A stretch of 64,000 nucleotides of DNA from Scenedesmus sp. PABB004 (GCA_014905635.1 JABVCE010000010.1:992001-1056000); one strand, 5' to 3'; shown: positions 5,033 to 39,767, counted from the first letter of the stretch. Numbers and translations are program-made. Notes: generated by a model not told the origin, from the letters alone.

Positions 5033-5296
5033 CGGCCCTGCGCGCATGCGTGAGAGAGAGGGCCGGCCGGCGTCCTGTGTGACGCCGGCCGGCGGCGGCG
5101 GCGGCGCCGAGGGCGCCGACCGCGCAGCGCGTTCGCACGGCAGGCGGGCCTCGAGGGCTGCCCGGCCGCGCCAGCGCGCTCTACGCTGCAAAAGAAGCCC
5201 CCGCCCGCACACCCGCCTCGACCCGTCGCCTAGGCGCCCCCACGCTCCGCGCACGCCCCCACGATCCGCGCACGCCGCCAGCTGGAGCTGGCGGGC
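5033..5296 (-). repeat. Segment X copy: inverted duplicate of 36904-37152 (last codons, TAG stop and 3' UTR of the 34285-36957 gene)
   Basis: Reverse complement reads ...gcggagcgtgggggcgcctaggcgacgggtcgaggcgggtgtgcgggcgggggcttcttttgcagcgtagagcg...ctcacgcatgcgcgcagg, near-identical to the sequence from 36937 to 37147. Confidence 0.95.
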
Positions 5297-5306
5297 ACGC
5301 GTTTAC

Positions 5307-7239
5307 GTGCAGGCTTTGCAGCGCGCCAAGCGCGCGGCGCTCTCAGCGAGCGTGCCGCTCGGCCACAAACCCTGTGCAGGTGCCCAGTCAAACAGTCATA
5401 CACAGTCTCCGTCGCTGCCCAGCAGCCGTCACATGGGCGTCGCAGCCCCAAGGCGCCAAGGGCGTGTTGCAGCCCCTACCCCACAAACCGGGGCGTCACA
5501 GCCCCGAGTCCGGTCAGGTGTGGCGGGCGCGCGCGGCAGCAGCCGCGCGCGCGCCGCTCGCGCTGCCGGCCAGCGCTCAGTGCGCGTGCGACCAGGCCTC
5601 GACCCCAACCCAGCAGTCGTCGACCCGCGCGCCCATCGAGCCGACGCTGCAATTCGTCCTCATGCGTGCCCCGCGGAGGGCCATGTCCTCGTCGGAGCCG
5701 CGCACGGGCGTGCGGGGCTGGAGGGGCGAGCTGGACTCGCCGCGCCCAGGTAGCTGGGCGGCGCCACCCTGGCGGCGGCGGCGTTGCTGACCGCCGTGTT
5801 GATGGCTGGCAGCTGGGCCGCGTGGGGCAGCACCTGCTCCTGCGCCCCGACCAGCTCGGCGCATGGGGCGTCCACGCCGCCGCCGGGGGCGGCGGCGGCC
5901 GCCGCCGGCGCCTCGGACGCGCCGCACACGGTCACGTCTGGGGAGCTGGTGGCCGCCGCCCTGGCGGCGGCGGCGTTGCTGACCGGTGTCGTGATGGTGG
6001 GCAGCTGGGCTGCCGGGCGCAGCACCTCCTCCGCCCCGACCAGCGCGGCGCAGGGGGCGTCCATGCCGCCGCCGGGGGCGGCCGCCGCCGCCACCTGGGC
6101 CGTGTTCACGTCGGCGGGCGCGTTGTCCAAGCAGGTCGTGTCCGCGTCGGCGCGCAGGGGCTGGTGCTCCTCGGGAGCGGCGAGCGCCTGCAGGAGGCGT
6201 GCGGCGCGGGGCGCAGGTGTCGGCCCTCGCGCCGCTCGCGCGCACACGCGGCGGCCGGGCGAGAGGCGACGCAAGCGGCGCGACGCCACCAGGCCACACA
6301 GCCCACCTGCTCCTGCGCGTCCACCTGCGCGTCCACCTGCTCCTGCGCCGCCGGCGGGTGGTCCGGGTGTGCCGCCTTGGTCTGCTTGGCCTTGCGCTGC
6401 CGCTGCTCCAGGCGCGCCTGCGGTGACCGGCGCGCGGGCGGTGGCAGCGCGCGTGAGGGACGCGATGGACGTGCAACGCGTTGCGTGGGCGCGCAAGGGG
6501 GCCAGCCGGGGCGCCGCACGCGCGCCGGCGGACATGTGAGACGGCGCTGGCGGTGCCGCGCCGCGCGGCCGCAGTGCGCGCCCGCGCCGCGCGTGTAGCG
6601 CGCTGGCAGCTTGCTATAGCTGGGGAGCCGGCGGCCAGGGCCGCGCGGCGCGCGTGGCGGCGCGGGGGCCCTCCCGCCGACGGGTGCACCCCCCGCCGCG
6701 CTGTGCGGGCCGCGCCGCCCACCTTGAGCGACGTGGCGTCGCGGAGAGCCTTCAGGGCCTTCTTGGCGGCGGCATGCACCGCGCGGACGGCGGCCTTGGC
6801 GGCCACGAGCTTTGGCGCCATGGCGCTGCTGGACGAGTGCTTTTGGAGAGCGTGAGCTGGGTGTGGGAGTGCGTTGCGACGTGTGTGAGCTCCCCGGGAG
6901 CTCGCGGGGGCATTTTAAGGGCCAAGCGCGCGGCCGGGAGGCGGCTGAGCGGGTTTTTGCCAGCTTGCCGCTGCTGTCGGCGCTCGGTGCCGCCGCCGGC
7001 GCCGCGCTCAGCGTGGCTGCCAGGCGGCCTGCGAGCTGTGACGAGCTGTGACGGGCGCCGGCGAGCGCGGCGGGCAGCGCGGCGCGCGGGGGCGGCGCCT
7101 CACGGGCCACCGCTGGCCGCCGCCGCCGACTGGCTGCCGCGCTGCGTGCGTCCTGCCAGAGCTGCTGCCGGTGACCAGGGCAGGCGGGCACGCCGCCCGC
7201 CGGACACCACGCCCGGGCCGGCGCGGGCGGCGGCCGCGC
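5307..7239 (-). mobile_element. Copy A of the duplicated orphan-gene cassette (upstream region, 3 exons, 3' region); inverted relative to copy B
   Basis: Continuous near-identity by eye to ~37481-39440, including both introns. No transposase, TIR or poly(A) was seen, so mobility is inferred from the flanking duplications. Confidence 0.6.
5577..6821 (-). pseudogene. Orphan cassette gene, copy A; exons 6821-6723, 6417-6307 and 6187-5577; frameshifted near 5742
   Basis: Translation MAPKLVAAKAAVRAVHAAAKKALKALRDATSLK|ARLEQRQRKAKQTK...|ALAAPEEHQPLR... Exon 3 is 611 nt versus 618 nt in copy B. A 10-bp loss (CTGGGCGCGG-CGAGT versus CTGGGCGCGGCCAAGCGCGGCGAGT) puts the C-terminal RVDDCWVG motif out of frame. 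Confidence 0.75.
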
Positions 7240-7241
7240 GT

Positions 7242-7465
7242 CGCTGCCCCGCAGGAAGGCGCTGGACAAGGTGGTGGGCAACCTGGCGGCGGCCGGGCAG
7301 TGACGCGCGAGGCGGCGGGGCGGTTGCAGGGCGTCGAGCTGCGGGGGGGACAAGTCGGCGGCCGGGTAAGTGCTTGCACGGGTGCAGAGCCAACTGCCCG
7401 GTCTCACTGCCCGCACAAGCAGCACCAAGCCGACGCGCGCGCAGGGCCACAGAAGGGTGGCCGCC
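7242..7465 (+). repeat. Segment Y copy: inverted duplicate of 39533-39767 (splice acceptor, last exon and 3' UTR of BCP1)
   Basis: cgctgccccgcag|gaaggcgctggacaaggtggtgggcaacctggcggcggccgggcagtga...gcagggccacagaagggtggccgcc matches the reverse complement of 39533-39767. Confidence 0.95.
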
Positions 7466-7971
7466 CGCAGGCGCCGTCGTCGTCGTCAGGCGCAGCCCGC
7501 CCCGCGCACGTGCGCCGGCCGGCGGCGGGCCCGCGCCGCCGGAGACGCGCAGCTTCTGCAGCTGTCGGTGGCTCACGCGGCGCACGCGGGCGCCCGCCCG
7601 CTGCGGCCAGCGTCAAGCATGCGTTATGGATTGATGATGATTGATGATGGCCGAGCGCTGTACACTCCGCGCGATTCCTGGTCGTACATGCGCGGGGGGC
7701 GCCCGGCCGCCGCCCGCACCGCCGCGGGCCGCTGGCGCCCGCGGGCGGCGCCAGCAGAAATTCGCCGGCGCGGCGCGCGCGCGCCGCCTGCACCTCCCTG
7801 CAGGCTCCGGAAGGCGAGTCGGCCGCTCGCCGCTCGCCCCCACAGTGCACAAATGCGCCCCCGCCTGCTCCTACTCCCCCGCCGCCCACCGCCTCGCGCC
7901 TCCCAAACCCCTGCCACCGCTCCTGCACACAGGTGCGGCCCCGCCGCCCGCCCGCGGCCGCGCCGCGCGCC

Positions 7972-8147
7972 TCAGCGCACGGCGGCGCCGGCGCTTTCGG
8001 CGCCCTCCTCGCTCACCGCCTCCTCGCCGCCCTCCTCGCCTGACCCCGTCGCCTCCGCCGCATCGGGCACGTCCAGGTCGGGCCCGGGCGCCGCCGCCGC
8101 CTCCTTGCCGCCGCCGCCGCCGCCGCCGCCCGGCACGGCGGGCGCGA

Positions 8148-8195
<48 letters not shown>

Positions 8196-8851: not shown

Positions 8852-8896
<45 letters not shown>

Positions 8897-11384
8897 GCGG
8901 GCGGTCCGCGCCGGCGCCGGGGTCGCCGCCGCCGGGCGGCGCGCGCAGCAGATAGGGGTTGCCGCGCGGCGGCGCGCCGCCGCCGCCGCCGCCCGGCTGC
9001 GCGGCCTCGGCGACGAGCGTCGGCAGGTTGGCCGCGTGCTGCAGCAGCTCGCCGAGCAGCTCGTACAGCGGCGTCGCGTCCTCCGCGCCGCACGGCTCGT
9101 CGTCGGCGTCGAGGGAGGCGACGCACGCGGTCAGCACGTCGGCGAGGTCGGGCACCACGTTGTGCACCTGCAACGCGCGCCGCGACGCGCCCGGGCAGGC
9201 GGGCGGGCGAGCGGGTGAGCGGCGGGGCCGGCGGGAGGGGCTGGGCTCGCGCGCAGCGGCGCCACAGGCACGCGCGCGCCGCGCGCGCCGCGCCGCTGCG
9301 CCGCGCCGCCGCCGCGCCTGCATGAGGTGCGCCGCCGCCCAGGGCCCGAGCGCCGCGTAGCGTCGCAGCACGCGCGCCGCGTCCGAGGGCATGTCCGGGC
9401 CGTCGAGCGCGGCGCCGGCGCCGGCGCCGTGCCGCGGCGGCACGCACGCGCGCACGAGGTCCACCAGGCGCTCCACGAACGACATCACCGCGACCGCGAG
9501 CGGCGGCAGGCGCACGCCGTTGTGCGCCTGCACCGCCTCGCTCAGCTGGGGGAGCGTGACGTGCGCCGCGCCGGCATGGCCGACGAGGTCGGCCTGCGCC
9601 CTGATGAGCAGGGAGATGTGGGGCGAGAGCACGCGCGACACGCGCTTGGCCGCCGCCTCGAGCGCCCAGCCCAGCATGTCCACCGCCCAGCGCCGCGCGC
9701 CGGGCGGGATCGACTCCGTGCCGACCAGGAAGGTGGACAGCCAGTCGGGGTGCGCGACCTGGAGCTCCAGGAAGAGCTGCCGGCGGCGGGCGCGCGGCGC
9801 GCGGCGGGCGGGCAGCGGGCGGGCGACGGCGGCGGCGTCGCACCGTGCACGGCGCGCGGGCGGCGGCGCGGCGGCGCGGCGGCGCGGCGGCGCGGCGGTG
9901 CGGGCGCGCGCCGCACCTGCAGGCACGCGCTGCTGCTGGGCCCTGCACTCATCAGGCTCATGAGCGCCTCGGTCCACACGTTGCTCTCGCTGCGCAGGCT
10001 GTCGTGCGCATGCAGGTAGACCTGGCGGCAGCGGCGGCGGCGGCGGCAGCAGCCGCGCTTGAGCGCGCGCTGTCGCGCCGCGCGGCAGGCCGCGCCGCGG
10101 GCCGGGGCCGGGTCCAGGGCGCCGGCGTCGTGCGCAGCCTGCGTGCCCACCTGGAATTGGAACAGCACGCCCAGCCGCAGCAGCGCGAGCGCCACCGCCT
10201 CGGCCTCCTCGCCGCGCCGGCTGGCCGGGCCGGGGCTCGCCGTCGGTTCCGCCGCGGGCGGCGCGAGCGGCGGCGGCGGCCCGGCCGCGGGCCTGGGGCT
10301 GCGCACCGGGCTGGCCGTCGCGGACGCGGCCGCGAGCGCCGACTGCAGCGTCGCGGGCGCCGGCGACACAGCCATGGGCGTGGGCGTCGTGCCGCCGCCG
10401 CCAGCGTCGGGCGCGGCGCCGTCGGCGCCGACCGCGACCGCCGCGGGGCGCAGCGCGCCGCCGCCGCCGCCGCCAGCGGCGGGCGCGTCCACACTCATCG
10501 CGCTCAGCGCGCCGCGCCCGCCGGAGCTGCACGACGGCGTCGCCGCCGCCGGCGCGGGCGCGGGCAGCGCCGGCGGCGGCGCGAGCGGCGCCCCGCCGCC
10601 GGGGCCGGACGCGGCCTCACGCCGCCGCGCCTTGCGCGCGGCGAGCTGGCCCAGGTCGCCGCGCGAGTCCACGAGCTGGCGCACAAAGCGAAAGTAGTCC
10701 CTGTCCAGCACGTGCTGCTGCCAGAGCAGGCTGACGTTGGTGGTCAGCACCTGGCGGTACAGCGCCTCGGGCATGCCCCACGGCGTCTCGCGCGCCGCCT
10801 GCGCCACCTGCTGCGCCGCGCCGTCGCCGTCGGCCTGCGGCGCCGACTCCATGGCCACGTCCTGCGCCGCCGGCGCTGCCTCTGCCGGCTGCGCCGCGGC
10901 CGCGCCGCCCGCGGCCGCCGCCTGCCGCTCGCCGGCGCGGCGCTCATAAAACAGCATGTAGGCGCTGTGCGCGCGCTCGTACTCGCCGCGCGCCGGCCGG
11001 CCCCGCGCGTCGCTGTCCTGGCTCGCGCGCCCGCCGAAGCACTCCGCCTCGAGCTCGTCCACGTCCCACGGCGTGACGCTCTTGTCGTCAAAGAGGAACC
11101 ACGACCCCTCGCCGCGCGGCTCGCCGCCAGCGGCGCCGGCATCAGCATCGAGCTGCGCGCGCTCGCGGATGTACGAATAGTAGTGCCCCGTGAAGGCGGA
11201 GCCCGAGTGCACGACCACGCCCATGAGGTCGTACATCGCGCGCGGCGCGCCGGCGCCGCCGGCGCCGGCGGCGCCGCCGCCCGCGAGCACGGCCTGCACC
11301 GCGTCGCTGAGCGAGCGCCGCAGGCCGTCGTCGGGCGCCGTGGGCTGCTGCTGCGGTGGTCCGCCGCCGCCGCCGCCGCCGCTC

Positions 11385-11425
<41 letters not shown>

Positions 11426-11571
11426 GGCGGCGCGCGCCGCCTCGCGGTCCGCCGCGGCGAGGCCGTCCGCGGTGTACTGGTGCATGTCGATCTCCATGGG
11501 GAACTCAAAGCGGTCGCGCACCTGTGGCCGCGCCGGGCCGGGCCGGGCCGGGCCGCGGGCGGGCTCAGCGC

Positions 11572-11608
<37 letters not shown>

Positions 11609-14600
11609 GGCGACGCGCGCGAATCTTCAACACACACACACACGGACGCGCGCGGCGCGCGCGGCGCACCTTGTAGCGCGTCTGGTTGTGGTAGTCAAAC
11701 TCGAAGCGCTTGAGGTGCACGCAGAGCATGGCCGGCAGCGACTTGATCGCGGCGCGCTTGACCGCGGTCACCTTCTGCCCCAGCTCCTCGCAGTAGTAGG
11801 CGTTGTCGCCCTCCATCAGCTCGCCCTGCGCGCGGTGCGGCGGCGCCGGCAGCGACGGCAGGTCCGTCGGCGGGGCCGGGGTCGGGCGCCCGACAGACAC
11901 GCACGCACGCATGCACGCAGCCAGCCGCCCACACGCGCGCACGCGTCAGCGCGCCCACGCAAGCGCCCGCACGCAGCCAGCCGCCTGCCCACACGCGCGC
12001 CGCGCACCTTGACGTAGTCGTCGAGGCTGCGCTGCAGCGAGCCCATGCCCTTGACGTCGACGCTGATCTGGTAAAAGTCCTCGCAGCGCTCGCTCGTAAA
12101 GGCGTGGCCGCGGCAGATGATCTGCTGCACAAACACGCCGCCCATGACCGACCGGATCGCGGGCGCCGTCCCGCCGCTGATCATGTGCTGGTCCACAAAG
12201 TCCTGCGGTTCAGGGGTCAGGGCGGCGCGGGCCGGCGGCGGCAGCGGCGCGCGTCGGCGGCGGATCCAGGGCGCGGCACCGGCGGGAGGGCGCCCGTGCT
12301 GCGCGCTGCGAGGCGCGGCCGCGGCGCGCGGCGCGCGCCTGGAGGCGTGTGAAGAACTCGTACGCGTCCTGGTGCTCCTTGACGTCGATGGGGCTGCCGT
12401 CGTAGTCCTTGAACGACGCCCAGAAGTCGCGGGGCCACAGGAACGTGCCCCGCCCCGCCGCGAGCGTCGCAAAGACGGCCTGCAGCTGCGCGAACACGCT
12501 CTCGCGCGCCGCCGCGCCCGCGACGCCCGGCGCGGCCAGCACGGCGGCGCGGATGGCGGGCTGCATGAAGAGCTGCTGGATGACGGCGTTCATGTAGCAC
12601 GTCGCGCCGCCGTTCTTAAGCCCCATGTAGCACCCGGGCCCGCGCAGCGCCTTGGGCGCGACGCCCCAGCCGGTGAGCACGGCGCGCTCGTAGTGCAGCG
12701 ACGCGAGCGCCGCGACGCCCTCCTCGAGCGCGGCCGGCGCGTCGCCGAGGAGCTCCGCGAGCAGCGCGAGCGCGGCGCGGCGCGCGGGCGGCCCGCTCGC
12801 GCGCGGCGCGAGGCGGCGCGCCGTCGCGCCCAGGCTCAGCCGCCCCGCCGCGAGCTCCTGCTGCGCGAGCGCCTCCGGGAAGAGAAAGTCGTGCAGCAGC
12901 AGCCGCGACAGCCCGCCGCCCGCGTCGGCGCCGACGCCGCGGCGGTCGAGCGCGCGCACGAGCGACAGCACCAGCCCCAGCCGGCCCGTCAGCAGCGCGT
13001 CCGCCGCGTCGGCGCCGGCCGGCGGCGGCGGCGGCGCCGCCGCCGCGGCGCGCAGCGCGGACACCTCCTCGTCGAGCAGCGCGCCCGCGAGCGCAAACAG
13101 CCCCGGCGCCTGCAGGCCCGCGCCGCCGCGCGCGGCCGCGGCGCGCGAGACCATCGCCGCGAGCAGGTCGTACAGCTCGCCGCTCGCGGCTGGCGCGGCG
13201 GCCGCGGACGCGCGCGCGGCCGACAGCTGCGCGAGCAACCACGGCAGCAGCCGCGGGTGCGCGCCGTCGGCGGTCGCGAGGCGCTGCAGCAGCTCCGCGG
13301 CCTGGCGGCGCAGCGCCGGGTGGTGGGGGCTGACCAGGACGACGCTGATGAGCGGGCAGGCCGGCGCGTCGAGCAGCAGCGCCTGCGCGAGCCCCGGCGC
13401 GCCCTCCAGCAGCCGCCCCAGCAGCGCGAGCGCGTCGCGCACGACGCCGCCGTCGCGCTCCGCCGCCGCGTCGCGCAGCGGCGCGTCCTCGTCGTCGCTG
13501 TCGGCGGCGCCGCCGCCGCTGGCGAGCGAGCTGGCGCCGGCGCCGCCGGCGGCGGGCGGGGGCAGCCCCACGCCTGGCTCGCGTCCACCGCCACGCCCAG
13601 CAGCGTCTCGGCAATCAGCCGTAGCGTTGCGGGCCCGAACGCCGCGAGGCTGGCGCCGGAGGCGGCGCCGCCGCCGCCCTGCGGCAGCGGCGGCAGGTCA
13701 TCGCCGCGCGCGCGCTGCTGCTTGCCGCCGCTGAGCTGCTGCCGCGGGCGCGGCGGCGCCGGCGCCGCCGACTGCTGGCTGCCGCCGCCGGCGGGGGGGG
13801 AGCTCAGGGCCTCCTCCATGCAGGCGCCGGGGCTGCCCGGCGCCTGCCACGGCGCAGCGCCGCTGGCCGCCGCGGCGTGGTTGTTGTCGAGCGCCGCGCT
13901 GGTCGCCGCGTCGCCGCCGCCGCCGCGCTGGCTGGACGCCGCGGCGCCGGGCGCGCCGCCGGGCGCGACGGCGCCGCTCTCGGCGCCGCTCATGCCCTCC
14001 GCGCCGCCGCCGGCGCCGTGCCAGGCGGCCGCGGCGTCCACGAGGTTGTGCAGCAGCGTGACCAGCAGCTCGCTGAGCTGCCGCCGGAGCTGGACGTCGG
14101 CGCCCGCGGCCGCGGCCGCGCGCCGCGCCACGTCGAGCACCACCTCCAGCCCGCGGCTGTGCAGGAAGTCCTGCCGCTGCGCGTCGCGGTGCGCCGCCGC
14201 GGCCGCCGCGCCGACGGCGGCCGCGGCCGCCGCCGCGGCGGGCTCGCCGCCGCCGTTGGCGGTCGCGGCCGCGCCCGCGCCCGCGGCGGGGCTGGGGCAG
14301 GCGCTCGCCTCGGCCATCGCCTCTGCGTCGCCGCCGGGCGGCAGCAGCGCCTCGTCCAGGGTGGGGAACAGCAGCGCCGCGAGCGCCTGCAGCGAATAGA
14401 GGGCCTGGTAGGGCCGCACACTGCCGCCGCCGCCGGCGCCGGCGCCGGGCCGCCCCGCGCCGGCGCCGTCGGCGAGCGCCGCCGCGAGCGCGGCCGCCTT
14501 GTCCGGGCCGTCCAGCGCCGCGGCGAGGCGCGCCGCGAGCGCCGGGTGCGTGGGCAGCTGCGCGAGCAGCTCCGCCGCCATGCGCCCCAGCTCGGGCGCC

Positions 14601-15356: not shown

Positions 15357-15387
<31 letters not shown>

Positions 15388-24477: not shown

Positions 24478-24825
24478 CGGCGGGCGGGGGCGCGGGGGCG
24501 CGGGACTGCTCGCAGCGGGCGGGCGGGCGGGGACGCAGTGGGGGGGGGGGGAGGGTAGGCAGCGCAGCGTGCCAGCAGGAGCGGGGTGGGTGGGTGGGCG
24601 AGCGAGCGCGGTGGGCGGGCGGGCGCGGCGGACCGTGCTGGCGCGGCGGCGGCGCGAGCACACGGGCTCTGTGATTGCCTGCCGCGCGTGTGCACACGCG
24701 CATGAAACCGCCTCGGCGCCCTCGCCCGCCCGCCGGCGCGCCCTCAGGCGCCTGCTGCGACGGCCGCGTGCCGCGCGCACAGCTGCGCGCCGCGTGCCGC
24801 CGCGCCCGCCCAGCGCTGGCGGGGC

Positions 24826-27961: not shown

Positions 27962-28679
27962 CGCCGCTGCCGCTGCTGCAGCTGCCGCTGCTGCCCCTGC
28001 TGCCGCTGCTGCTGCCGCCGCGCCGCCGCTGCCGCCGCTGCTGCGCGCTGGGCGGGGCGGGGCTCCGGGCGCCGCGCCTGGGGCCGGCCGAGCGCGCGCC
28101 GCGCCGCGCGCCTGCGCAGCAGCGGCCGGCGGCCGGCGGGCTCAGCGCAGCGCAGCGCGCGGCGGCTGCCGCGTGCTGACCCCTCGAGCGCCTGGTCACG
28201 CGCGGCCTCCCAGACGCAGGCAGGCAAGAGGCCTGGGCTGCGCACGAGCGCGGCGGCAGCTCGGCCGTGCGGCGCTGCTGCTGCGCTGCCGCCGCGGCGC
28301 CGGCGTGCGCACCTCACGCGCCCGACGCCGGCAGCGAAGCCTCACAGATCGATCGCGGCGGGTGCGGAGCTCGGGCGAGCGAGGGGGCTGCCGCGGGGAC
28401 GCGTTGATTGCTGATGGGGGGGGGGGCGACTGCAGACGGCGACAGCTGGGCGTGGGCGGTCGCTGGCCGGGCGTCGGCGAGCGTGAAAGCAGCACACGTG
28501 CACCGCCCGAGGGCTTTTGGCGTCAAAAACCTCATGTGTTACTTCGCCAGGGCGTGCGGCGGCACGCCCGCGGCCGCGCGCTGCACTGCAAGGTGCCGGC
28601 CGCCCCTCACCCGCTGCCAGAGCTGCGCACCAGCCGTAGGCCACACCCGCGACCCCGCCGGCGCGCCAGGGCGGGAGCA

Positions 28680-30496
28680 ATGCAGCTGTCGGGCGCCTGC
28701 AGTCGGCCCTGCGGCCGCACCGCGGCCCCGGGACGGCGGCTGGGCGCGCCGGCAGCACAGTGCCGGTGGCCCGGGATGGCCCGCGCCGCGGCGGCGGCGC
28801 CCGGGTGCGGGCGCGCGGCAGCGGCGCGGCAGCAGCTGCGGGAGCGGGCGGCGCGCCCACGCGAACCCCGCGCCCGGCCCCGCAGGCAGGTGGAGAGCAT
28901 CCAGGGCGTGCGGCCTGAGATCCAGGAGGCCATCGCGGCGGCGCTGGGCAACTGCGTGACGCAGACGTCGCTCCCGCTGCCGAACAAGCGCGTGGTGCGC
29001 CCGCGGCGGCGCTCGCCCGCGCCGCGCTCGCCCGCGCTCTGCTGGCCCGCACAGCACGGCGCCGCGCCGCCACTGCCTAAAACCCCGCGCCGCGCGTTCA
29101 GGGCAAGGTGCGCGACACGTATGAGCTGGACGACAAGATCGTCATCGTCACCACCGACCGCCAGTCAGCGTTTGACCGGCTGCTCGCGTCCATCCCCTTC
29201 AAGGGCCAGGCGAGCGCGCCCGCGCGCCGTGGCCTTGCGCCAACTCCCCAAGCCCGCGCGCTGCCGACGCGCGCGCCGCTGCCGCCCGCCGCCGCGCGCC
29301 TTGTCGCCAGGTGCTGAACCAGACGTCGGCGTGGTGGTTTGCCGGCACGTCGCACATCGTCGGCAACGCGGTGCTCGACGTGCCCGACCCAAACATCACG
29401 GTCATGAAAAAGTGCACAGTCTTCCCAGTCGAGTTTGTGGTCCGGGGGTACATGACCGGTGAGATGCGTGCGCGCCGCTGCAGCGCCGCCGCGGCGGCGG
29501 CCCCCGCCGCGCGACGACCCGGCCCCGGCCCGCCGCCGCGCGCCGTGTGCACCGCCGCGCCGACCCCTGACCCGGCCCGCCGCGCCGCGCCGCCGCGCAT
29601 GCCGCGCTGCGCCGCGCGCGCCAGGGTCGACCGACACGAGCCTGTGGACGCACTACAAGGCCGGCGCGCGGAGCTACTGCGGCAACGCCTTCCCCGACGG
29701 CATGGCCAAGAACGAGCGCCTCGCGGCCAACGTGATCACGCCGACGACCAAGAGCGAGACGCACGACGAGCCCATCGCGCCGGCCGACATCGTGGCGCGC
29801 GGGCTCATGACCGCGTCCGACTGGGACGCCGCAAGCGCGGCGGCGCTGTCGCTCTTTGCGCACGGCCAGGCCACCGCGGCGGCGCGGGGGCTGCTGCTCG
29901 TCGACACCAAGTACGAGCTGGGCAAGGACGCGGACGGCAACATACTGCTGCTTGACGAGGTGCGGCGCCCGCGGGCGCGGCGGGCGGCGGCGCCCGCGGC
30001 GGCGGCGGCGGTTCAGGCGGCCGTCGCCGGTTGCCGCGCGCACGCGCGCGGGGCTTGGGCGGCCCGCGCGGCTGACGGCCGCCGGCCCCGCCTCGCCCAC
30101 GTCTGCCCGCCGCGCGCGCCAGATCCACACGCCCGACTCGAGCCGCTACTGGCTGGCGGACAGCTACGAGGCGCGGCTGGCGGCGGGGGAGGAGCCGCAG
30201 AACATCGACAAGGAGTTCCTGCGCCTCTGGTTCAGGCAGCGCTGCGACCCCTACAAGGACGAGGTACGCGCGCGCGCGCACGCGGGGCCCCGCCGCCGCC
30301 GCCGCGCATTGTGACGCCCGCGCGCGCGTCTACGCGCGCGCAGGTGCTGCCCGCGGCGCCGCCGGAGCTGGTGCGTGAGCTGTCGTCGCGGTACGTCTAC
30401 CTCTACGAGCGCATCACGGGCCAGGCCTTTGCGCCGCCGCCGGCGGGCGAGCCCGTGGCGGAGCGCATGCTGCGCAACATGGCGGCCTACCTCTGA
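28680..30496 (+). CDS. purC: SAICAR synthase (phosphoribosylaminoimidazole-succinocarboxamide synthase), organelle-targeted
   Basis: [97 protein letters not shown] and [12 protein letters not shown]. Confidence 0.97.
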
Positions 30497-30776: not shown

Positions 30777-32847
30777 TCAGCTCGTGCTCATCGCCTCGCC
30801 GCCCGCGGCCGGCGCGCCGGCGGGCGCGGGCTTGGGCAGGTCGACCAGCTTGCCCTTGGCGTCGAGGGCCTTGCGGAAGGGGATGAAATCAATGCCCGGC
30901 AGGAAGGGCTGCAGCGCGGGCGGCACGCGCACGCCGGTCGGCGTCTGGTAGTTTTCGAGGACGCAGCAGAGCGTGCGCTGCGTTGCGGTGAGCGTCGAGT
31001 TGAGCATGTGCACGAAGGGCTTGGCCTCGGCCGCGCCGGGCGCGGTCTTGGGCGTGCGCACGCGGATGTCGAGGCGCCGCGACTGCGCGCGACCGCGGCA
31101 GCAGCGGCGGCACGGCGGCGACACGGCGGCGGCGGGCGGGGCGGGGGGCGCGCGGCTCTCGGCGGCGGGCTCGCGCGCGCGCGGCGCAGCCCCTCGCGCG
31201 CGGCGCAGCCGTCTCGCGCGGCAGCCCCCTCGCGCGCGCGCGCGCGCCCGCGCCTGGTAGTCTGTGCAGTTGGAGCAGGACACGAGCTCGCGGTGCGTCT
31301 TGCTCGCGGGGAACCAGGCCTCGAGGTCATACTTCTTGGCCGCCGCGTTGTTGAGCTCGCCGCTCACGATGTTGACCACGCGGTACGGCAGGCCCAGCGC
31401 CTGCGCACAGGTTTCAGGGTTCAGGGTTTAAACACGGGCGCGGCGGCGCGGCGGCACGGCGGCCGGCCGGCTCGGCCGACGCGGCGGCAGCCCCCCGCGC
31501 CCGCAGCGGCTGCGTGGCCGTGTGCGCGCGCTGCGCCCCCTCCCTCCCGCGCGCCTGGTAAAACTCCTCTGCGTTGCCAAGCATCTCCTCCATGACCTCC
31601 CAGCTCTGGTTGCCCTCGGGGCTGCAGATCACAAACTGCTCGACCTTCTCAAACTGGTGGATCCTGTGGGTGTGTGGGGTGTGTTGTGTGTGTGGGTGCG
31701 GGGTGTGTGGTGGGTGGTGGGTGTGGGCGTGGGTGTGTGTGTGTGTGGGGGGGGGGGGGGTGCGTGAGTGCAGGTGGGTGTGTGTGTGTGCGTGTGGGTG
31801 GGTGCAGGTGGGTATGTGGGGCGCGGCCCAACTCAGTCAGCCAGGGCGGCCCGCCGTGGCGGCGGCCCCTGTCGGCGGCGGCGCGGCGGCGCTGCGGCGG
31901 GCGCGCCTGAAGATGCCGAGCGTGTCGCGGCCGTGGCTGCCGGCCTCCTTGCGGAAGCAGGTCGAGTAGCCGACCATGCGCTGGGGCAGGTCGGAGCGCT
32001 CGAACCAGTCCTTGCGGTGCATCGCGCACAGCGTCTGCTCGCTCGTCGCGATGAGGTACTTGTCGTCACCCTCGCCTGGCGCGGGTCGGCGGCGCGGTGG
32101 GCGAGTGTGTGACCGGGTTGGATGGGCGGGTGCGTGGTGGGTTGGTGCGTGGCGCGCGGGCGGCGCGGGCGGGGAGCCTGCGTCGGCGCCGCCCTGCTGT
32201 GGGTCGGTCAACCGACCCACACACGCACCCACAGCCACCCCCCCCCCCCCACACACTTGGGCCCCCGCCCTCCCCCTCACCGGTGACCTTGTAGAGCTCC
32301 TCGTCAAACTGGGAGAGCTGCGCGCACTCGGCCATGATGTCCTGGCGCATGAAGAACGGCGTGTGCACCGGCTTGAAGCCGCGCCGGTACGCAAAGTGCA
32401 GCGCCGCGTTGATGAGCGCCTGCGGCGCGCGCGGCGGGCGGGCGTGGGGGTGGGCTCGGAGGCAGGCACGCGCGCCGGCTGGCGGCGGCGGCGGCGGCCA
32501 GGCGGCGGGCGGGCGCCGGGCGAGCGCCGTGCGCCTCTCTGGCGCCGCCACCGCCGCCGCGGCGCGCGCCTGGTTGAGCAGTGGCCCCTCATTGGTCAGG
32601 TAGTACCCCCGCCCGCCCGCCACGCTCGTGCCGGCCTCGAGGTCGACGATGTCCAGCAGCTGCGCCGGCGGGCGGGGAGGGAGGGGTGGGCGCGGGGGCG
32701 GCGCGGGGGGGGGGGGGGGGGTGCGCTGGGTCGCCGCGGCCGGCGCGGCCGCGCCGCGCCGCGTGGCCCCGCAGCTGCTGCTGGGCCACCTGCAGCAGCT
32801 GCTGCTGGGCCGCGTCCGCCCTTGCCCCCATGCACGCTCGAGCTCAC

Positions 32848-32878
<31 letters not shown>

Positions 32879-33883
32879 ACACATACACACGCGCGCGCCC
32901 CGCGCGCCCCTCCCCACCTGCACCAGGTCCACGTGGTTGTACAGCTTCTCCTCCTGCCGCGGCTCGCCCCACGTGCGCACGACGGCGTTGTTGTCCTGCG
33001 GGCGACCGACCGCGCGCACGCGCACGCGGGCCCCGGGCTCAGGCCGCGGCCGCCAGGCGCCGCGCGCCGCCGCCGGCGCGCCGCTGACGGGCGCTGGGCT
33101 GCCTGTCGCCGGCCGCCGCGCGCCGCTGCGCAGCCGCCCTGCGGGCGCCGCCCTTCGCGCAGCTGCGGGTGAGGTGCACCTCGTTGTCGCTGACGGGCAC
33201 GCTGTCGTGCACGAGGTTGCCGATGGGCAGCAGCGCCGCGTCGCGCGCGGCCGCGATCTCGCCCTCCTTGGCCTCCAGCTCGGCGATCGTCGCCTTCATC
33301 GCCTTGGTGCGCTCCTGCAGCTCGCCCGCGTCCTGCTTGGCCTGCGGTGCGCGGCGCGTGGCGGGTCGGTGGCGCGGGGTCGGCGGCGCGCGGCGAGCAG
33401 CGCTGCGTCGCGCCGGGCGCGCTGCCGGGCGGCCCACCTTGCGCAGCTCGCCGATCTGCTTGTTCAGCGCGTTGAACTCCTTCTTGACCTGGTCCAGCGC
33501 GAAGCGCGCTGCAGCGGCGGCGGCGCGGCGAGCTCGCGGGCGCGCGCGCGCGCACGCGAGCAGCCGCCGCAACCGCAGCGGCAGCGGCGACGGTGGGGGC
33601 CGGCCCGCCGCCGGCGCTCGCCGGCGCGCGGCGTCCAGCTCGCCGCCCCGCCGGCTGGTCGGGCCGCTCACCATTGCGCCAGTCCGCGTCCAGCTGCACG
33701 ACCTTGTCCACCAGGCCCACATCGGCGAAGCGCCGGCGCTGGCTCTCCCGCACGCGCTCCGGGTCGCCGCCCTTCTCTGCGCGGCGCGCAAGCGTGAGCA
33801 CCGACGAACGGCCAGGCTCGCCCGCGGGGCGGCACGCGCGCCAGCGCGCGCGCACCGACGCGGAACTCGTTGATGTCCAGCAT
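30777..33883 (-). CDS. serS: Seryl-tRNA synthetase, cytosolic type
   Basis: [117 protein letters not shown] and [15 protein letters not shown]. Confidence 0.98.
31665..31820. repeat. Low-complexity (GT/GGGT)n tract in a SerRS intron
   Basis: Directly visible TG-rich tract with a G run at ~31747-31760. Confidence 0.85.
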
Positions 33884-34284
33884 TCTGCCCGCTGGAGGGC
33901 GCGTCAATCGCTGTGCGCAGCGTGGTCGGCGGCGGGCGCGCCGGAGAGGCCCGTGACGCGAGGCGGGGGCTGCTTGGGCACCTGGCGCGGGCCCAGACGA
34001 CCGCAAAGACCGCGCGCCTGCTGCTCCACCTCTGCTGGCGTCGACAACACGCCCGCCAGGCTCTCACACCCGCACCCCACACCCACCCTCACCCGCGCAG
34101 CTGCCACGAGCACACCCAGCAGCCGCCACCGCCGCGGGCGGCGGCGCGCAACTGCTGCCGCTGCTGCCGCGCCTGGGCGCACGCGCCATCCCTGCTGCGC
34201 GCAGCCCACGCGCCCGCACTCCTCCCGACGCCCAGGCGCTCCACCCGCTCTCAGGTGGACGCCCCGCCCTCGCCAGAGCTGGGC

Positions 34285-36957
34285 ATGGCGCCCCAGCCCG
34301 GGGCGGAGGTGGTGGCGCAGCTCGCGCTGGGCGAGAGGCGGCGCGGCGGCGCGCGGCACGCGGGCGCGGCGGGGCCAGCGTGCGGCGCTGTCGCCGCGTT
34401 CGCCGCCGTCCGCGTCGGCGGCAGCCTCGTGCTCGCCAGCGCGCAGGACCTGGCGCCCCGCAGCGCGCTGGAGGCGCCCGCCGAGGCCGATCTCGGCGGC
34501 GTCTCCTGCTCCCCCGACGGCGCGTGGCTCGCGGCGTGGTCGTCGGACGATCTGTTCCTGTGCCGCGTGCGCTCGCCGGCGGCCGTGGGCGCGCTGGCGC
34601 ACGCGGGGCAGCTGCCGGGCCTCCGCTCGCTCGCTTGGTGCCCGCGTTCGTGCGCGCTGGCGGCCTGCTGCAAGCAGGAGCTGGCCGTGCTGCCGCTGCC
34701 GCCGTTGCGCGGCGGCGCTGGCGGCGGCGGCGCTGGCGCCGGCGGCGGCGAGCCGCCGGCGCCCCTGCAGCGCCTGCCCGGCCCGCGCGGCGCGGCCGCG
34801 GGGCCGCGCTGCGCGGCGTGGCTGCCGCGGCCCCGCGCCGACGCGCCGCCGGGCGTGCTGGCGGCCTGGGGGAGCGAGCTGCTGCTCTTCACCTGGCCAC
34901 AGGGCGCGGGCGGCGTCGACTGGCGCCGGCGCAGCGTGCAGCGCATCCTGCCGGGGTGGCACGGCCCCGTGCGCGCGCTCGCGGCCGCGTGGGACGCCAG
35001 CAGCGCCGGCTGCGTGGTTTTGGCCACGGTGGACGCTCAGCTCGACCTCGGCAGCGGCGGCGGTGACGAGAGCAACGCTGTGCTGCTCATGCCCGGCAGC
35101 GGCAGCGGCAACGCGCGCCGGGGGCTGATCTCGGAGCTGCCTGGCGCCAGCCCGCCGGCAGGCAGCGGCAGCAGCAGCAGGGAGGGCAGCCCGACGCAGG
35201 CGCGGCGCAGCGGCGCCAGCCCGCCCCACGGCGTGCGCCCGCCGCGCGCGGGCGTCCGGCTGTCGCCGGGCGGCGGCGCCGAGGCGGCGGGCGCGCTGGC
35301 GCCGCAGCCGGGCGTGCTGGGCAGTCTGCTGAGCATCGGCGGTGCGGCCGAGCCTGATGCGGAGCACCGCACGCCGCGGCTGATCGCTGACCTGTCGCCG
35401 CCACGCGGCGCGCGTGACGCCACCAGTGGCAGCGCCAGCGCCAGCGCCAACGCCAGCGCCAGCGCCAGCGCACGCATGCACCTGCTGCGCCTGGGGGACG
35501 CGCAGGCGGGCTCGCCCGCCGCCGCCGCGCTGGCGCTCCCGCGGCTGCCTCTTCCAGACCTGCTGGTGGTGCACGAGGCGAGCGGGCTCGCCGCGGTCGC
35601 CAGCAGCGCGGCGAGCCCTCCGCTCGTCGCCCTCATCAGCGTTGGCGGCGCGGCGGGGCTGGAGCTGCTGGCGACGGTCACGCTGCCGCTGCCGCGGGGG
35701 GTCGCCGACCCGGGCGCCACCCGCGCGCGGGTGGAGGGCCTCGCGCTGGTCGCGGCGGGCGCAAACCCGAACGCGCCTGCCCCGTCCGGACGCGCTGCCG
35801 AGGGGAGCGTCGCCGGCCGCGGCGGGCTCCAGGCGTTCCCGGTCGTCGGCGAGGGCGGCTTTGGCGGCGTCAGCGCGCCGGCGGCGGCGGCGGCTGCTGC
35901 AGGCGGCGGCGGCGGCGCCCCGGACGTCGTGGCGCTGCTCAGCTGCTGCCCGGCGGCGCGCGCGGGCGAGTTTGCTGGCTTTGGCAGCAGCAGGGGTGGC
36001 GCCGCAGAGGAGTTTTTGGTGCGGTGCCGGCTGGCCCTGGAGCTGGCGGGCGGCGCGCAGCCGCCGCAGCAGGATCAGGCGGCGCACGCGGCGGTGGACG
36101 ACGGCGACGACGGCGACGCCGACCGGGCCGCCAGCCAAGACCCCGGCGAGAGCATCTGGTGGCGCGGCCTGACGCAGCGGCCGCGCAGCCCCGGCGCGGC
36201 GCTGCCGGCCCGCGCGGCGGCGCTGGCGGAGCAGACGGCCGCGCTCGAGGCGCGGCAGCGGGAGCAAGAGGAGCGCATGCGACAGGCACAGGCCAAGGTG
36301 CTTTCAGAGCTGGAGGCCGAGTGCGCTCAGCTGGCGGCGCGGCGGGCCGCCACGCCGCAGCGGCGCGCGGTCGGCGCGGCGCAGGCGGCATGCGCCGGCA
36401 GCGGCGCCGGCAGCCCCAGCAGCGCAGACGTCTCGCCCATCGCGCCCGGGGTGCAGGGCCTCGCAGCGCTGGCGGCTGGCGGCAGCACGGCCGCGTCTGC
36501 GGCGGCGGCGACAGCCGCGGCGGACGCGCAGGCCGCGCGCATTGAGCGCGTCGCGGCTGCCCTCAGCGGCCTGCAGGCACGCATCGAGGCGCGGCAGGCT
36601 GCCGGCGGCGGCGCCACGACCCCTGCGCCGGCGACGCCGGCGCCAGCGTCGGCGCCGCGCAGCCCCGTGCGGCAGGCGCTGCTCGCTGGCAGCGCCGCGC
36701 AAGAGTCGGCCGCCGCCGCCGGCGCCATGCTCGCGGGCCTGCGCGCCACGCTCGACGCCCTGCTGGCGCAGCAGGCCGCGGCGGCGGGGCGATGGGCGGT
36801 TGGGGGCCAGGGCGCGGACGACGCGCTGGCGGCGGCGGTCAGCACGCTGCGGGAGTCGCTGGAGGTGCGGCTGGACGCAATGTCAGGCAGCCTGGCGGCG
36901 ATGGCCCGCCAGCTCGAGCGCCTTGCGGCGGCGGGCGCGGAGCGTGGGGGCGCCTAG
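34285..36957 (+). CDS. Uncharacterised ~890-aa protein: beta-propeller-like N-terminus and coiled-coil-like C-terminus; apparently one long exon
   Basis: Long ORF with WD-like strands (GVSCSPDGAWLAAW, RSLAWCP, LLLFTW, WHGPVRALAAAWD) and heptad-like segments (LEARQREQEERMRQAQAKVLSELEAECAQL). A possible upstream exon is suggested by an acceptor at 34254. Confidence 0.65.
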   Translation: MAPQPGAEVVAQLALGERRRGGARHAGAAGPACGAVAAFAAVRVGGSLVLASAQDLAPRSALEAPAEADLGGVSCSPDGAWLAAWSSDDLFLCRVRSPAAVGALAHAGQLPGLRSLAWCPRSCALAACCKQELAVLPLPPLRGGAGGGGAGAGGGEPPAPLQRLPGPRGAAAGPRCAAWLPRPRADAPPGVLAAWGSELLLFTWPQGAGGVDWRRRSVQRILPGWHGPVRALAAAWDASSAGCVVLATVDAQLDLGSGGGDESNAVLLMPGSGSGNARRGLISELPGASPPAGSGSSSREGSPTQARRSGASPPHGVRPPRAGVRLSPGGGAEAAGALAPQPGVLGSLLSIGGAAEPDAEHRTPRLIADLSPPRGARDATSGSASASANASASASARMHLLRLGDAQAGSPAAAALALPRLPLPDLLVVHEASGLAAVASSAASPPLVALISVGGAAGLELLATVTLPLPRGVADPGATRARVEGLALVAAGANPNAPAPSGRAAEGSVAGRGGLQAFPVVGEGGFGGVSAPAAAAAAAGGGGGAPDVVALLSCCPAARAGEFAGFGSSRGGAAEEFLVRCRLALELAGGAQPPQQDQAAHAAVDDGDDGDADRAASQDPGESIWWRGLTQRPRSPGAALPARAAALAEQTAALEARQREQEERMRQAQAKVLSELEAECAQLAARRAATPQRRAVGAAQAACAGSGAGSPSSADVSPIAPGVQGLAALAAGGSTAASAAAATAAADAQAARIERVAAALSGLQARIEARQAAGGGATTPAPATPAPASAPRSPVRQALLAGSAAQESAAAAGAMLAGLRATLDALLAQQAAAAGRWAVGGQGADDALAAAVSTLRESLEVRLDAMSGSLAAMARQLERLAAAGAERGGA

Positions 36958-37152
36958 GCGACGGGTCGAGGCGGGTGTGCGGGCGGGGGCTTCTTTTGCA
37001 GCGTAGAGCGCGCTGGCGCGGCCGGGCAGCCCTCGAGGCCCGCCTGCCGCCGCGCGAACGCGCTGCGCGGTCGGCGCCGTCGGCGCCGCCGCCGCCGCCG
37101 CCGGCCGGCGTCCTGTGTGACCTCTCTCTCTCACGCATGCGCGCAGGCCCGG
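36904..37152 (+). repeat. Segment X, native copy (3' end of the 34285-36957 gene)
   Basis: Inverted match to 5033-5296. Confidence 0.95.
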
Positions 37153-37915
37153 CTGGCCGGTGGGGCGCGGGGTCCTGTGTATGGCTGTTTGACGGGGCAG
37201 CTCGCTAGGGCGCGGAGGATTGACGGCTGAGTGGCGCCCCCGCGCTTGGCGAGCTGCAAAGCTCTGCCTGCACTTGGCCCGCCCAGCGGGACTCGGTTGG
37301 TCGCTGCAACTTGCCCCCCCCCCCCGCGCGCGTGCACCTGGCCATCGAGGTGCGCTGTAGCGGCAACGTGCCAAGCGGCCCGCCCAGCTAAGCGCGGCCC
37401 GCCGCGTGCGTCCCCGGCCGTGTGCATCGCCGCCCGTCGGCACCCGGCGGACCGCGCCGCAGCAGCAGCACCGCTGTGGTGCGCGGCCGCCGCCCGGGCC
37501 GGCCCGGGCGTGGTGTCCGGCCGGCGGCGCGACACGCCCCGCCTGCCCTGGGCCACCGGCAGCAGCTCTGGCAGCACGCACGCAGCGCGGCAGCCAGTCG
37601 GCGGCCGCGGCGGCCAGCTTTCGCCGGCGGCCCATGAGGCGGCGCCCCCGCGCGCCGCGCTGCCCGCCGCGCTCGCCGGCGCCCGTCACAGCTCGTCACA
37701 GCTCGCAGGCCGCCTGGCAGCCACGCTGAGCGCGGCGCCGGCGGCGGCACCGAGCGCCGACAGCAGCGGCCAGCTGGCAAAAACCCGCCCAGCCGCCTCC
37801 TGGCCGCGCGTTTGGCCCTTAAAATGCACCCTCAAGCTCCCGGGGAGCTCACACACGTCGCAACGCACTCCCACACCCAGCTCACGCGCTCCCACAGCAC
37901 TCGTCCAGCAGCGCC

Positions 37916-39167
37916 ATGGCGCCAAAGCTCGTGGCCGCCAAGGCCGCCGTCCGCGCGCTGCGCGCCGCCGCCAAGAAGGCTCTGAAGGCTCTGCGCGACG
38001 CCACGTCGCTCAAGGTGGGCGGCGCGGCCCGCACAGCGCGGCGGGGGGTGCACCCGTCGGCGGGAGGCCCCCCGCGCCGCCACGCGCGCCGCGCGGCCCT
38101 GGCCGCCGGCTCCCCAGCTATAGCAAGCTGCCAGCGCGCTACAAGCGCGGCGCGGGCGCGCACTGCGGCCGCGCGGCGCGGCGCCGCCAGCGCCGTCTCA
38201 CATGTCCGCCGGCGCGCGTGCGGCGCCCCGGCTGGCCCCCTTGCGCGCCCACGCGACGCGCTGCACGTCCAGCGCGTCCCTCACGCGCGCTGCCACCGCC
38301 CGCGCGCCGGTCACCGCAGGCGCGCCTGGAGCAGCGGCAGCGCAAGGCCAAGCAGACCAAGGCGGCGCACCCGGACCACCCGCCGGCGGCGCAGGAGCAG
38401 GTGGACGCGCAGGTGGACGTGCAAGAGCAGGTGGGCTGTGTGGCCTGGTGGCGTCGCGCCGCTTGCGTCGCCTCTCGCCCGGCGGCCGCGTGTGCGCGCG
38501 CGCGGCGCGAGGGCCGACACCTGCGCCCCGCGCCGCACGCCTCCTGCAGGCGCTCGCCGCTCCCAAGGGGCACCAGCCCCTGCGCGCCGACGCCGACACG
38601 ACATGCTTCGACAACGCGCCCGACGTGGACACGGCCCAGGTGGCGGCGGTGGCCGCCGCCCCTGGTGGCGGCGTGGACGCCTCCGCCGTGCTGGTCGCGG
38701 CGGAGGAGGTGCTGCGCCCGGCAGCCCAGCTGCCCACCATCACGACACCGGTCAGCAACGCCGCCGCCGCCAGGGCGGCGGCCACCAGCTCCCCAGACGT
38801 GACCGTGTGCGGCGCGTCCGAGGCGCCGGCGGCGGCCGCCGCCGCCCCCGGCGGCGACGTGGACGCCCCCTGCGCCGAGCTGGTCGGGGCGCAGGAGCAG
38901 GTGCTGCCCCACGCGGCCCAGCTGCCGGCAATCAACACTGCGGTCAGCAACGCCGCCGCCGCCAGGCTGGCGCCGCCCAGCTACCTGGGCGCGGCCAAGC
39001 GCGGCGAGTCCAGCTCGCCCCTCCAGCCCCGCACGCCCGCGCGCGGCTCCGACGAGGACCTGGCCCTCCGCGGGGCGCGCATGAGGACCGACTGCCGCTT
39101 CGGCTCGATGGGCGCGCGGGTCGACGACTGCTGGGTTGGGGTCAAGACCTGGTCGCACGCGCACTGA
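37916..39167 (+). CDS. Orphan cassette gene, copy B (intact); exons 37916-38014, 38320-38430 and 38550-39167; 275 aa
   Basis: Canonical GT-AG introns conserved in both copies. Exon lengths 99+111+618 nt keep frame. Basic Lys/Ala N-terminus, internal duplication, and C-terminal ALRGARMRTDCRFGSMGARVDDCWVGVKTWSHAH*. CTTAAAAT lies ~95 nt upstream of the ATG. Confidence 0.75.
38643..38967 (+). repeat. Internal tandem duplication in exon 3 of the cassette gene (~38643-38775 and ~38829-38967)
   Basis: AAAPGGGVDASAVLVAAEEVLRPAAQLPTITTPVSNAAAAR versus AAAPGGDVDAPCAELVGAQEQVLPHAAQLPAINTAVSNAAAAR. Also present in copy A. Confidence 0.9.
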
Positions 39168-39532
39168 GCGCTGACCGGCAGCGCGAGCGGCGCGCGCGCG
39201 GCTGCTGCGCGCACGCCCGCCGCACCTGACCGGACTCGGGGCTGTGACGCCCCCGTTTGTGGGGCTGGGGCTGCAACACGCCCTTGGCGCCTTGGGGCTG
39301 CGACGCCCCTGTGACGGCTGCTGCGCAGCGACTGAGACCGTGTATGACTGTTTGACCGGGCAGCTGCACAGGGTTCATGGCCGAGCGGCGCGCTCGCTGA
39401 GAGCGCCGCGCGCTTGGCGCGCTGCAAAGCTCTGCCTGCACCTTGGGCGGCCTCGTGGGTGCCGCGACTGGGTTGGTCGCGGAAACGTGCCCCAGCGGCC
39501 GGCCCCGCCACGCGTGGCCCGCCCTGCTCGCT

Positions 39533-39767
39533 GGCGGCCACCCTTCTGTGGCCCTGCGCGCGCGTCGGCTTGGTGCTGCTTGTGCGGGCAGTGAGACCGG
39601 GCAGTTGGCTCTGCACCCGTGCAAGCGCTCACCCGGCCGCCGACTCGTCCCCCGCGCAGCTCGACGCCCTGCAACCGCCCTGCAACCGCCCCGCCGCCTC
39701 GCGCGTCACTGCCCGGCCGCCACCAGGTTGCCCACCACCTTGTCCAGCGCCTTCCTGCGGGGCAGCG
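39533..39767 (-). repeat. Segment Y, native copy (BCP1 last exon and 3' UTR)
   Basis: Inverted match to 7242-7465. Confidence 0.95.

Follow-up and report, generated by a model that had tools for sequence, protein, structure and literature searches.

The stretch analysed here is a window of 64,000 nucleotides (nt) from the green alga Scenedesmus sp. PABB004 (GCA_014905635.1 JABVCE010000010.1:992001-1056000), and its subject is a pair of loci, near 5.0-7.5 and 36.9-39.8 kilobases (kb), that carry inverted copies of the same three blocks. These are a cassette of 1.93 kb that holds an orphan gene, a block called X from the 3' end of a large gene (34285-36957), and a block called Y from the 3' end of the BCCIP (BCP1) gene. 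Both host genes are full-length at the right locus, and the left copies, X' and Y', are detached stubs. As a whole, the arrangement has the look of a scar left by a single, complicated rearrangement, and not of a new kind of jumping element. For this alga an assembly of 39.8 Mb in 77 contigs (N50 1.3 Mb), with 78.5% guanine plus cytosine (GC) and 1.31% repeats, has been reported (PMC12571836, Table 1), and little is known of how rearrangements arise in such a genome. The duplicated features, and an older repeat that adjoins them, are the following.

5001-5296, minus strand: X', detached inverted copy of X, with the last 17 codons and stop of the large gene and 231 nt downstream (alignment; 6 substitutions in 211 positions).
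5297-5306, no strand: filler of 10 nt between X' and the cassette tail, like neither partner (alignments).
5307-7239, minus strand: left cassette copy, exons 6821-6723, 6417-6307 and 6187-5660.
7240-7241, no strand: two unmatched bases (alignment).
7242-7468, plus strand: Y', detached inverted copy of Y, with 13 nt of intron, the 49-nt last BCCIP exon (7255-7303) and 165 nt downstream (alignments).
36904-37188, plus strand: X, attached to the large gene, with its last 17 codons, the TAG at 36955-36957 and 231 nt downstream (alignment, reading frame).
37177-37367, plus strand: T1, an old direct copy of the cassette 3' tail directly after X, about 67-73% identical and opening with the motif TGTATGGCTGTTTGAC at 37178-37193.
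37481-39440, plus strand: right cassette copy, exons 37916-38014, 38320-38430 and 38550-39167, TGA at 39165-39167.
39340-39493, plus strand: T2, 3' tail of the cassette itself; 39441-39493, the final 53 nt, occur in the right copy only.
39530-39767, minus strand: Y, attached to the BCCIP gene, with 176 nt downstream, the last exon with its TGA and 13 nt of the last intron (alignment, Pfam).

Comparison of the left with the right locus by BLASTN gave three inverted matches: the cassette (5309-7239 = 39435-37481, 94.1% over 1962 columns, E = 0), Y (7223-7468 = 39787-39530, 91.1% over 258, E 2e-95) and X (5022-5260 = 37163-36927, 89.0% over 246, E 7e-81). The same arms were found in a separate repeat search. 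On the plus strand, with C for the cassette, the left locus reads X'-C'-Y' and the right locus X-C-Y, each block being inverted and the order of the blocks kept, not mirrored. This bears out the first-pass annotation, which had read Y-cassette-X and X-cassette-Y in gene orientation and had recognized X and Y as the 3' ends of the large gene and of BCP1: the TAG of the former lies inside X, and the last BCCIP exon with its stop codon inside Y. Refined alignments place X at 36904-37188 = 5296-5001, the cassette at 37481-39440 = 7239-5307 (4.1% substitutions) and Y at 39530-39767 = 7468-7242. The ends first given for Y (39533-39767 / 7465-7242) hardly changed, and for X (36904-37152 = 5296-5033) the start was kept and the far end moved out to 37188 / 5001. 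A self-BLAST of the whole window returned seven matches, all seven of them the X, Y and cassette pairs or a 192-bp tandem repeat internal to the cassette; X and Y are therefore not dispersed repeats within the window, a possibility raised earlier as fatal to an inversion.

The two cassette copies do not share their ends. The right copy has an extra 89 nt of 3' tail (39441-39529), and before it stand 292 nt (37189-37480) with no counterpart at the left copy. Beyond the block ends no homology was detected: the sequence left of X' scored 26 against T1 and the spacer behind it (shuffles 28.5 +/- 4.2), and that right of Y' scored 27 against 39300-39529 (shuffles 23.2 +/- 3.6).

The detached X' also shows small features of its own. 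At 5062-5093 it carries a perfect 13-nt inverted repeat with a 6-nt loop (GCCGGCCGGCGTC ... GACGCCGGCCGGC), of which the right X has only the first arm and 3 nt; the palindrome arm resembles a small fold-back-type insertion made after the duplication. A 19-nt tandem duplication near 5255-5296 and a (CCA)n run are found in X' as well.

Substitutions over aligned positions amount to 6/211 in X, 10/241 (4.1%) in Y and 78/1924 (4.1%) in the cassette, with 95% intervals of 1.0-6.1%, 2.0-7.5% and 3.2-5.0%, respectively. Four of the ten Y mismatches fall in the last 16 nt, outside the preferred end of Y, and without them Y has 6 in about 225. A chi-square comparison of the three blocks gave p = 0.68, and the three duplications share one age within the weak limits of such small counts. 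Equal ages favour a single compound event over two insertions and a later inversion, and that event would have occurred at a depth of about 3-4% divergence.

The cassette is a complete, ordinary orphan gene of three exons and, on the reading preferred below, not a mobile element. In the right copy, 435 nt of upstream region are followed by an ATG at 37916, three exons with GT/AG borders and about 270 nt of tail after the stop codon. Its exon borders are identical to those of the deposited 1141-amino-acid (aa) model P0001, in which a 1,033-nt intron connects the large gene (34285-36864) with the three cassette exons and the large gene's last 30 in-frame codons and TAG are skipped (34285-39164); the predictor has probably fused two genes in P0001. 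In the left copy the ATG and every splice site are retained, and a 10-nt deletion swaps its last 56 residues for 25 others; at the site of this deletion the right-copy frame still has a third-position GC of 1.0. The copies differ by ten insertions or deletions besides the 4.1% substitutions, and the left one has begun to decay. Exon 3 of each copy (5749-6101; 38642-39011) contains two tandem 192-nt units of 64 residues, about 77-86% identical within one copy.

The cassette protein found no match among proteins of 113-363 aa, and among those of 364-2000 aa only the window's own model P0001. An exhaustive search with exon 3 against 1.84 billion representatives returned P0001 and one bacterial cadherin-like repeat protein of 3142 aa (P0002, E 1.9e-9), a match that we take as driven by composition or summed repeats. 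An Atlas search with the cassette protein gave no usable match, P0001 as a whole contained zero Pfam families at E <= 1, and the cassette protein showed no similarity to that of the large gene. Neither transposase, reverse transcriptase nor integrase domains were found by Pfam in six-frame open reading frames (ORFs) of at least 70 aa at both loci or in P0001, and the cassette has no terminal inverted repeats beyond GC-rich low-complexity matches. Given the lack of transposon domains and terminal repeats and the unshared ends, the cassette does not qualify as a transposon.

This bears directly on the origin put forward in the first-pass annotation, by which the cassette is an element that inserted twice in opposite orientations, at the 3' end of the large gene with duplication of X and at that of BCCIP with duplication of Y, after which recombination between the copies inverted 30 kb and swapped the flanks; the pairs predicted for the ancestor are argE (the M20 gene) with the large gene and USP with BCP1. 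A hand check agrees that exchange inside the inverted copies turns the present state into X-cassette-X and Y-cassette-Y, and flanks swapped in exactly this manner are the accepted signature of Galileo inversions as described by Delprat et al. (2009, PMC2775673). The similar lengths of X (285 nt) and Y (238 nt), both of which cover a stop codon and a downstream region, would suit two such insertions, as would the older direct repeat T1/T2 that flanks the right cassette body. An inserting element should nevertheless bring a transposon domain or terminal repeats and end alike in both copies, and this cassette has neither and ends differently on both sides. A third, source copy would be needed too: the 64-kb window holds two copies, and one deposited protein has exon 3, the left copy itself being unannotated (unannotated copies escape this count), with no relatives among the 1.84 billion representatives save the weak repeat-driven match. 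The low repeat content reported for the genome (1.31%, PMC12571836) counts against this history as well, and two insertions and an inversion would have to share one age. We regard it as improbable; the inversion is retained in the reading preferred below, and element insertions as its cause are unsupported.

A further difficulty for insertion comes from T1 and T2, whose homology amounts to 73% over 156 columns (E 7e-18), with a local score of 123 against 24.0 +/- 3.5 in 200 shuffles. A 16-nt motif is found exactly three times in the window, once in T1 and once in each cassette tail, against 0.08 expected. T1 is absent from the left locus, where the cassette tail halts at 5307, and the right tail runs 53 nt more in register with T1. 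The left X copy ends in GTATGG.TGT, collinear with the first bases of T1, so that about 10 nt of T1 are included; GTATGG has four occurrences on both strands of the window, two of the four at the collinear X ends. The adjacency of X and T1 thus predates the duplication of X, which argues against X as a target-site duplication, such an age being hard to square with an insertion that starts at T1. The copied X unit spans the supposed border between target and insert; for Y nothing contradicts duplication from the target alone. With the equal divergence of all three blocks, the earlier view of X and Y as target-site duplications is not upheld, and the case cautions that long flanking duplications are not automatically of that kind. 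T1 and T2, direct repeats 2 kb apart at the right locus, fit a long-standing adjacency of the large gene and the cassette.

The three pairs of repeats could also be read together. The cassette would then be a non-autonomous mobile unit carrying a gene; it would insert at the 3' ends of convergent genes by widely staggered cuts, with about 150-300 nt of the host gene end duplicated each time (T1/T2, X and Y). If true, its insertion would leave host genes intact and make target duplications far longer than those of any known transposon. We hold this to be highly improbable.

The motif deserves a remark of its own. Its copies (TGTATGNCTGTTTGAC at 5387-5402, 37178-37193 and 39341-39356) lie 174-221 nt past the cassette and large-gene stop codons, where the motif may mark 3'-end processing sites of both genes. 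On the minus strand, 42616-42631 is a weaker copy with two mismatches. The window gave no match in Rfam or tRNA scans, and the tail repeat is therefore not a known RNA.

The possible histories depend on the gene order around the two loci. Genes were identified by Pfam scans of six-frame ORFs, and the series runs from a CobW-type GTPase (minus) and a peptidase M20 (plus) to the left patch, then a USP9X/UBP24-like hydrolase (minus), ferredoxin-thioredoxin reductase beta (minus), DUF7886 (plus), RWD (minus), SAICAR synthetase (plus), seryl-tRNA synthetase (minus) and the large family-less gene (plus), followed by the right cassette, BCCIP/BCP1 (minus) and RRP5 (minus).

2285-4787, plus strand: peptidase M20 (ArgE/DapE-type) gene, 3' part (Pfam PF01546, E 8.5e-11; TGA at 4785-4787).
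7469-36903, no strand: block of 29.4 kb between both loci, with the genes given in the next rows (Pfam).
Stop at 7972-7974, UCH at 9545-13697, ARM at 17822-18190, minus strand: USP9X/UBP24-like ubiquitin hydrolase (Pfam).
21746-22943, minus strand: ferredoxin-thioredoxin reductase beta (Pfam).
22684-24671, plus strand: DUF7886 (Pfam).
27410-28141, minus strand: RWD protein (Pfam).
29176-30493, plus strand: SAICAR synthetase (Pfam).
30780-34088, minus strand: seryl-tRNA synthetase (Pfam).
34285-36957, plus strand: large family-less gene, TAG at 36955-36957 (reading frame; no Pfam family).

For a count of steps, the loci were coded as blocks (a, X, t for T1 plus spacer, C, u for the extra tail, Y, M and d), and the search started from eight single-copy ancestors, in all of which X-t stays attached to the large gene, u to the cassette and Y to BCCIP. 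The permitted steps were inversion with optional staggered ends, insertion of a copied contiguous segment either way round, and removal of a block that had become redundant; in the three-step search, staggered or copied segments were limited to at most four blocks and deletions to single redundant blocks. From none of the eight ancestors does a history of one or two steps lead to the present state. Eleven three-step histories exist, starting from three ancestors, none of them with more than one inversion, the other steps being small copies or deletions. In the first (a), the cassette lies beside the large gene and M20, the inversion is staggered at cassette plus u and at Y, the left u' is lost and X' is inserted. 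In the second (b), the cassette lies beside BCCIP, the inversion is staggered at t'X' and at the cassette, t' is lost and Y' is inserted. In the third (c), the present order is ancestral and three inverted copy-insertions follow. The route of two long-duplication insertions and a recombination likewise takes three steps, plus an outside source copy. Step count alone does not decide among the histories; the local repeat T1/T2 and the running of X into T1 favour (a) and (c) and disfavour (b) and the double insertion.

The best explanation, to which we give a probability of roughly 0.4, is history (a): one compound rearrangement in which a staggered-break-type inversion duplicated the cassette and the last BCCIP exon, and a small templated patch was added. 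Judging from the sequence, the ancestral order would have begun with the M20 gene, followed by the cassette and large genes, each on the minus strand, then by the other genes, and ended with USP facing BCCIP. One staggered pair of breaks would have lain on either side of the cassette and its full tail (about 2.05 kb), the other around the final 238 nt of the BCCIP gene. Filling in and joining of the ends would then have inverted the block of about 30 kb, so that a cassette and a Y came to stand at each end, oppositely oriented, with two inversion junctions, the nearly blunt cassette/Y' junction at 7239-7242 and the one at 39529/39530. On the outer side of the left cassette, where fill-in would have started, 89 nt of tail would have been replaced by the 296-nt copy of X and 10 nt of filler, the patch being templated from sequence that lies 292 nt beyond the cassette. 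A later exchange between the 1.9-kb inverted copies may have flipped the block once more, and X-C-X / Y-C-Y may then have occurred as an intermediate, not as the outcome of two transposon insertions.

Several observations speak for this compound inversion. Each end of the block carries an inverted duplicate of non-repetitive host sequence. Divergence is equal in the cassette and Y (both 4.1%) and compatible in X, as a joint origin predicts. The junctions look like end joining, with two unmatched bases between cassette and Y' and the 10-nt filler between X' and cassette, and history (a) is among only eleven three-step paths, with no shorter path available. The decay of the left copy through its frameshifting 10-nt deletion also agrees with it. 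Other points weigh against it. A staggered-break inversion by itself yields mirror order (x y' ... x' y), which fits the cassette with Y, or X with the cassette, and not all three blocks together; only two of the three are accounted for. The X' patch and the loss of 89 nt require an extra, ad hoc step, and histories of opposite polarity or without inversion reach an equal step count. The counts in X and Y are small, which constrains their common age weakly, and if the deposited splice between large gene and cassette is real, X would be intronic and not a gene end. When all histories are summed, the balance tips somewhat towards a real inversion of the block; the probability left over is assigned to histories that we have not thought of.

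The same loci can be derived with no inversion at all. The present order would then be ancestral, and a break between the 3' ends of M20 and USP would have been repaired from the right locus, 30 kb away, with three inverted pieces, Y (39530-39767), cassette (37481-39440) and X (36904-37188), forming a patch of 2.47 kb at 5001-7468. As a single event this gives equal divergence of X, Y and cassette, and a contiguous native right locus accounts for T1, for the uncopied 292 and 89 nt and for the entry of X into T1. Fillers of 2 and 10 nt stand at the junctions as they do at template switches, the decaying cassette copy is the left one, and the ancestor is among the three that reach the present state, by three copy steps. 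Serial template switching during replication, of the type of microhomology-mediated break-induced replication or fork stalling and template switching (MMBIR/FoSTeS), joins nearby donor segments in a new order at one site, leaves the donor intact, and yields junctions with few unmatched or inserted bases. Here, however, the pieces nearly tile a 2.86-kb donor (gaps of 292 and 89 nt) in reversed order, which, by estimate and not formal computation, is unexpected from free template switching and is no stated expectation of those models. Three backward switches would be needed in one repair, each halting just before the previous start. We know of no description of this mechanism in green algae, though no search was made, and we judge the patchwork, the main rival, rather unlikely.

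A staggered-break inversion of the opposite polarity, as in history (b), would have started from a cassette between USP and BCCIP, with X plus T1 plus spacer and the cassette as the staggered regions; the 292 nt of T1 and spacer would have been lost at the left, and Y' inserted between cassette and USP. It is a three-step path in the enumeration and would place the 10-nt filler at a true inversion junction (X'/cassette), but T1 and T2 would then have stood in inverted orientation, 30 kb from each other, in the ancestor, an odd arrangement for an old local repeat when the genome is poor in repeats. Two clean secondary events would also be required, at junctions left unbroken by the inversion. 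On these grounds we find this history very improbable.

Another account is an assembly error, a mis-join inside the 1.9-kb repeat that turned the 30-kb block the wrong way or attached flanks to the wrong cassette copy. With 4.1% substitutions and ten insertions or deletions between them, however, the copies are neither collapsed nor duplicated by an assembler; the contig that carries P0001 is 1.27 Mb long in an assembly of 77 contigs with an N50 of 1.3 Mb as reported (PMC12571836), and a flipped block merely gives X-C-X / Y-C-Y, a state that would itself call for explanation. An artefact is hardly to be expected.

The closest known kind of event is an inversion scar with inverted duplicates of unique sequence, of which the present case is a more complex variant. 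In Drosophila, inverted duplicates of non-repetitive breakpoint sequence, on the kilobase scale, were reported for 17 of 29 inversions and explained by staggered breaks (Ranz et al., 2007, PMC1885836). As in the scars described there, host genes or fragments, and not repeats, are duplicated in opposite orientation at the block ends, and duplicates of hundreds of bases to kilobases have then decayed by substitutions and small deletions; that paper also describes breakpoint regions that are complex and underwent secondary events later. The alga differs in that three duplicated blocks stand in the same order, not in mirror order, at both ends, only two of the three being explained by a single staggered-break event.

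Galileo offers the other comparison. In Drosophila buzzatii, exchanged target-site duplications of 7 nt have served as the argument for inversions by this P-superfamily transposon, which has long terminal inverted repeats (Delprat et al., 2009, PMC2775673). The likeness lies in two inverted copies at the breakpoints with swapped flanking duplications. Here, in contrast, the repeat unit is an ordinary three-exon gene, the 'duplications' measure 238-296 nt, the copies end unequally and one flank overlaps an older neighbour. The locus provides a clean and datable breakpoint scar that neither inverted-repeat recombination nor a single staggered-break inversion reproduces, and in which a whole orphan gene was duplicated, one copy already decaying. 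The four candidate histories differ in the gene order they predict, and strains or relatives could decide between them directly.

Three further routes were rejected. An RNA-mediated origin of X and Y does not agree with a cassette copy in which both introns and the 435 nt before the ATG are retained, with the 13 nt of intron kept by Y, or with the lack of an A-tract after X'. Circular-intermediate and tandem-duplication routes were worked through by hand and give the cyclic order Y-C-X, opposite to X-C-Y.

As to the host genes, the window has 76-85% GC in 2-kb steps and short introns, and is eukaryotic. GC at third codon positions reaches 0.9-1.0 in coding stretches (window 1-64000), and stop-free frames hundreds of codons long occur on both strands; ORF lists alone are therefore useless, and gene calls rest on codon-position GC and Pfam. 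The large gene at 34285-36957 has zero Pfam families even at E <= 1, which leaves the label 'WD-like' once attached to it without support. In the M20 gene, a three-frame reading of 4480-5110 places a donor (TTCAG/GT) at 4590 and has the final exon end in ...DEASKA before the stop; an AT-richer patch at about 4975-5000 is a likely 3'-end region. The BCCIP gene has PF13862 (E 8e-33) in its upstream exon, a last intron at about 39755-39851, and a 49-nt last exon (39754-39706, minus strand) that ends in ...VVGNLVAAGQ before the stop.

A metagenome scan with the BCCIP exon recovered four loci at 38-46% identity. When these were searched by tblastn with seven window proteins, BCCIP only was found; USP, RRP5, M20, the large gene and seryl-tRNA synthetase were not beside it, and the four loci are thus uninformative on synteny. 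Three metagenome contigs of about 75% GC (L001-L003) encode a BCCIP relative of 38% identity, a hint at another very GC-rich eukaryote in environmental data.

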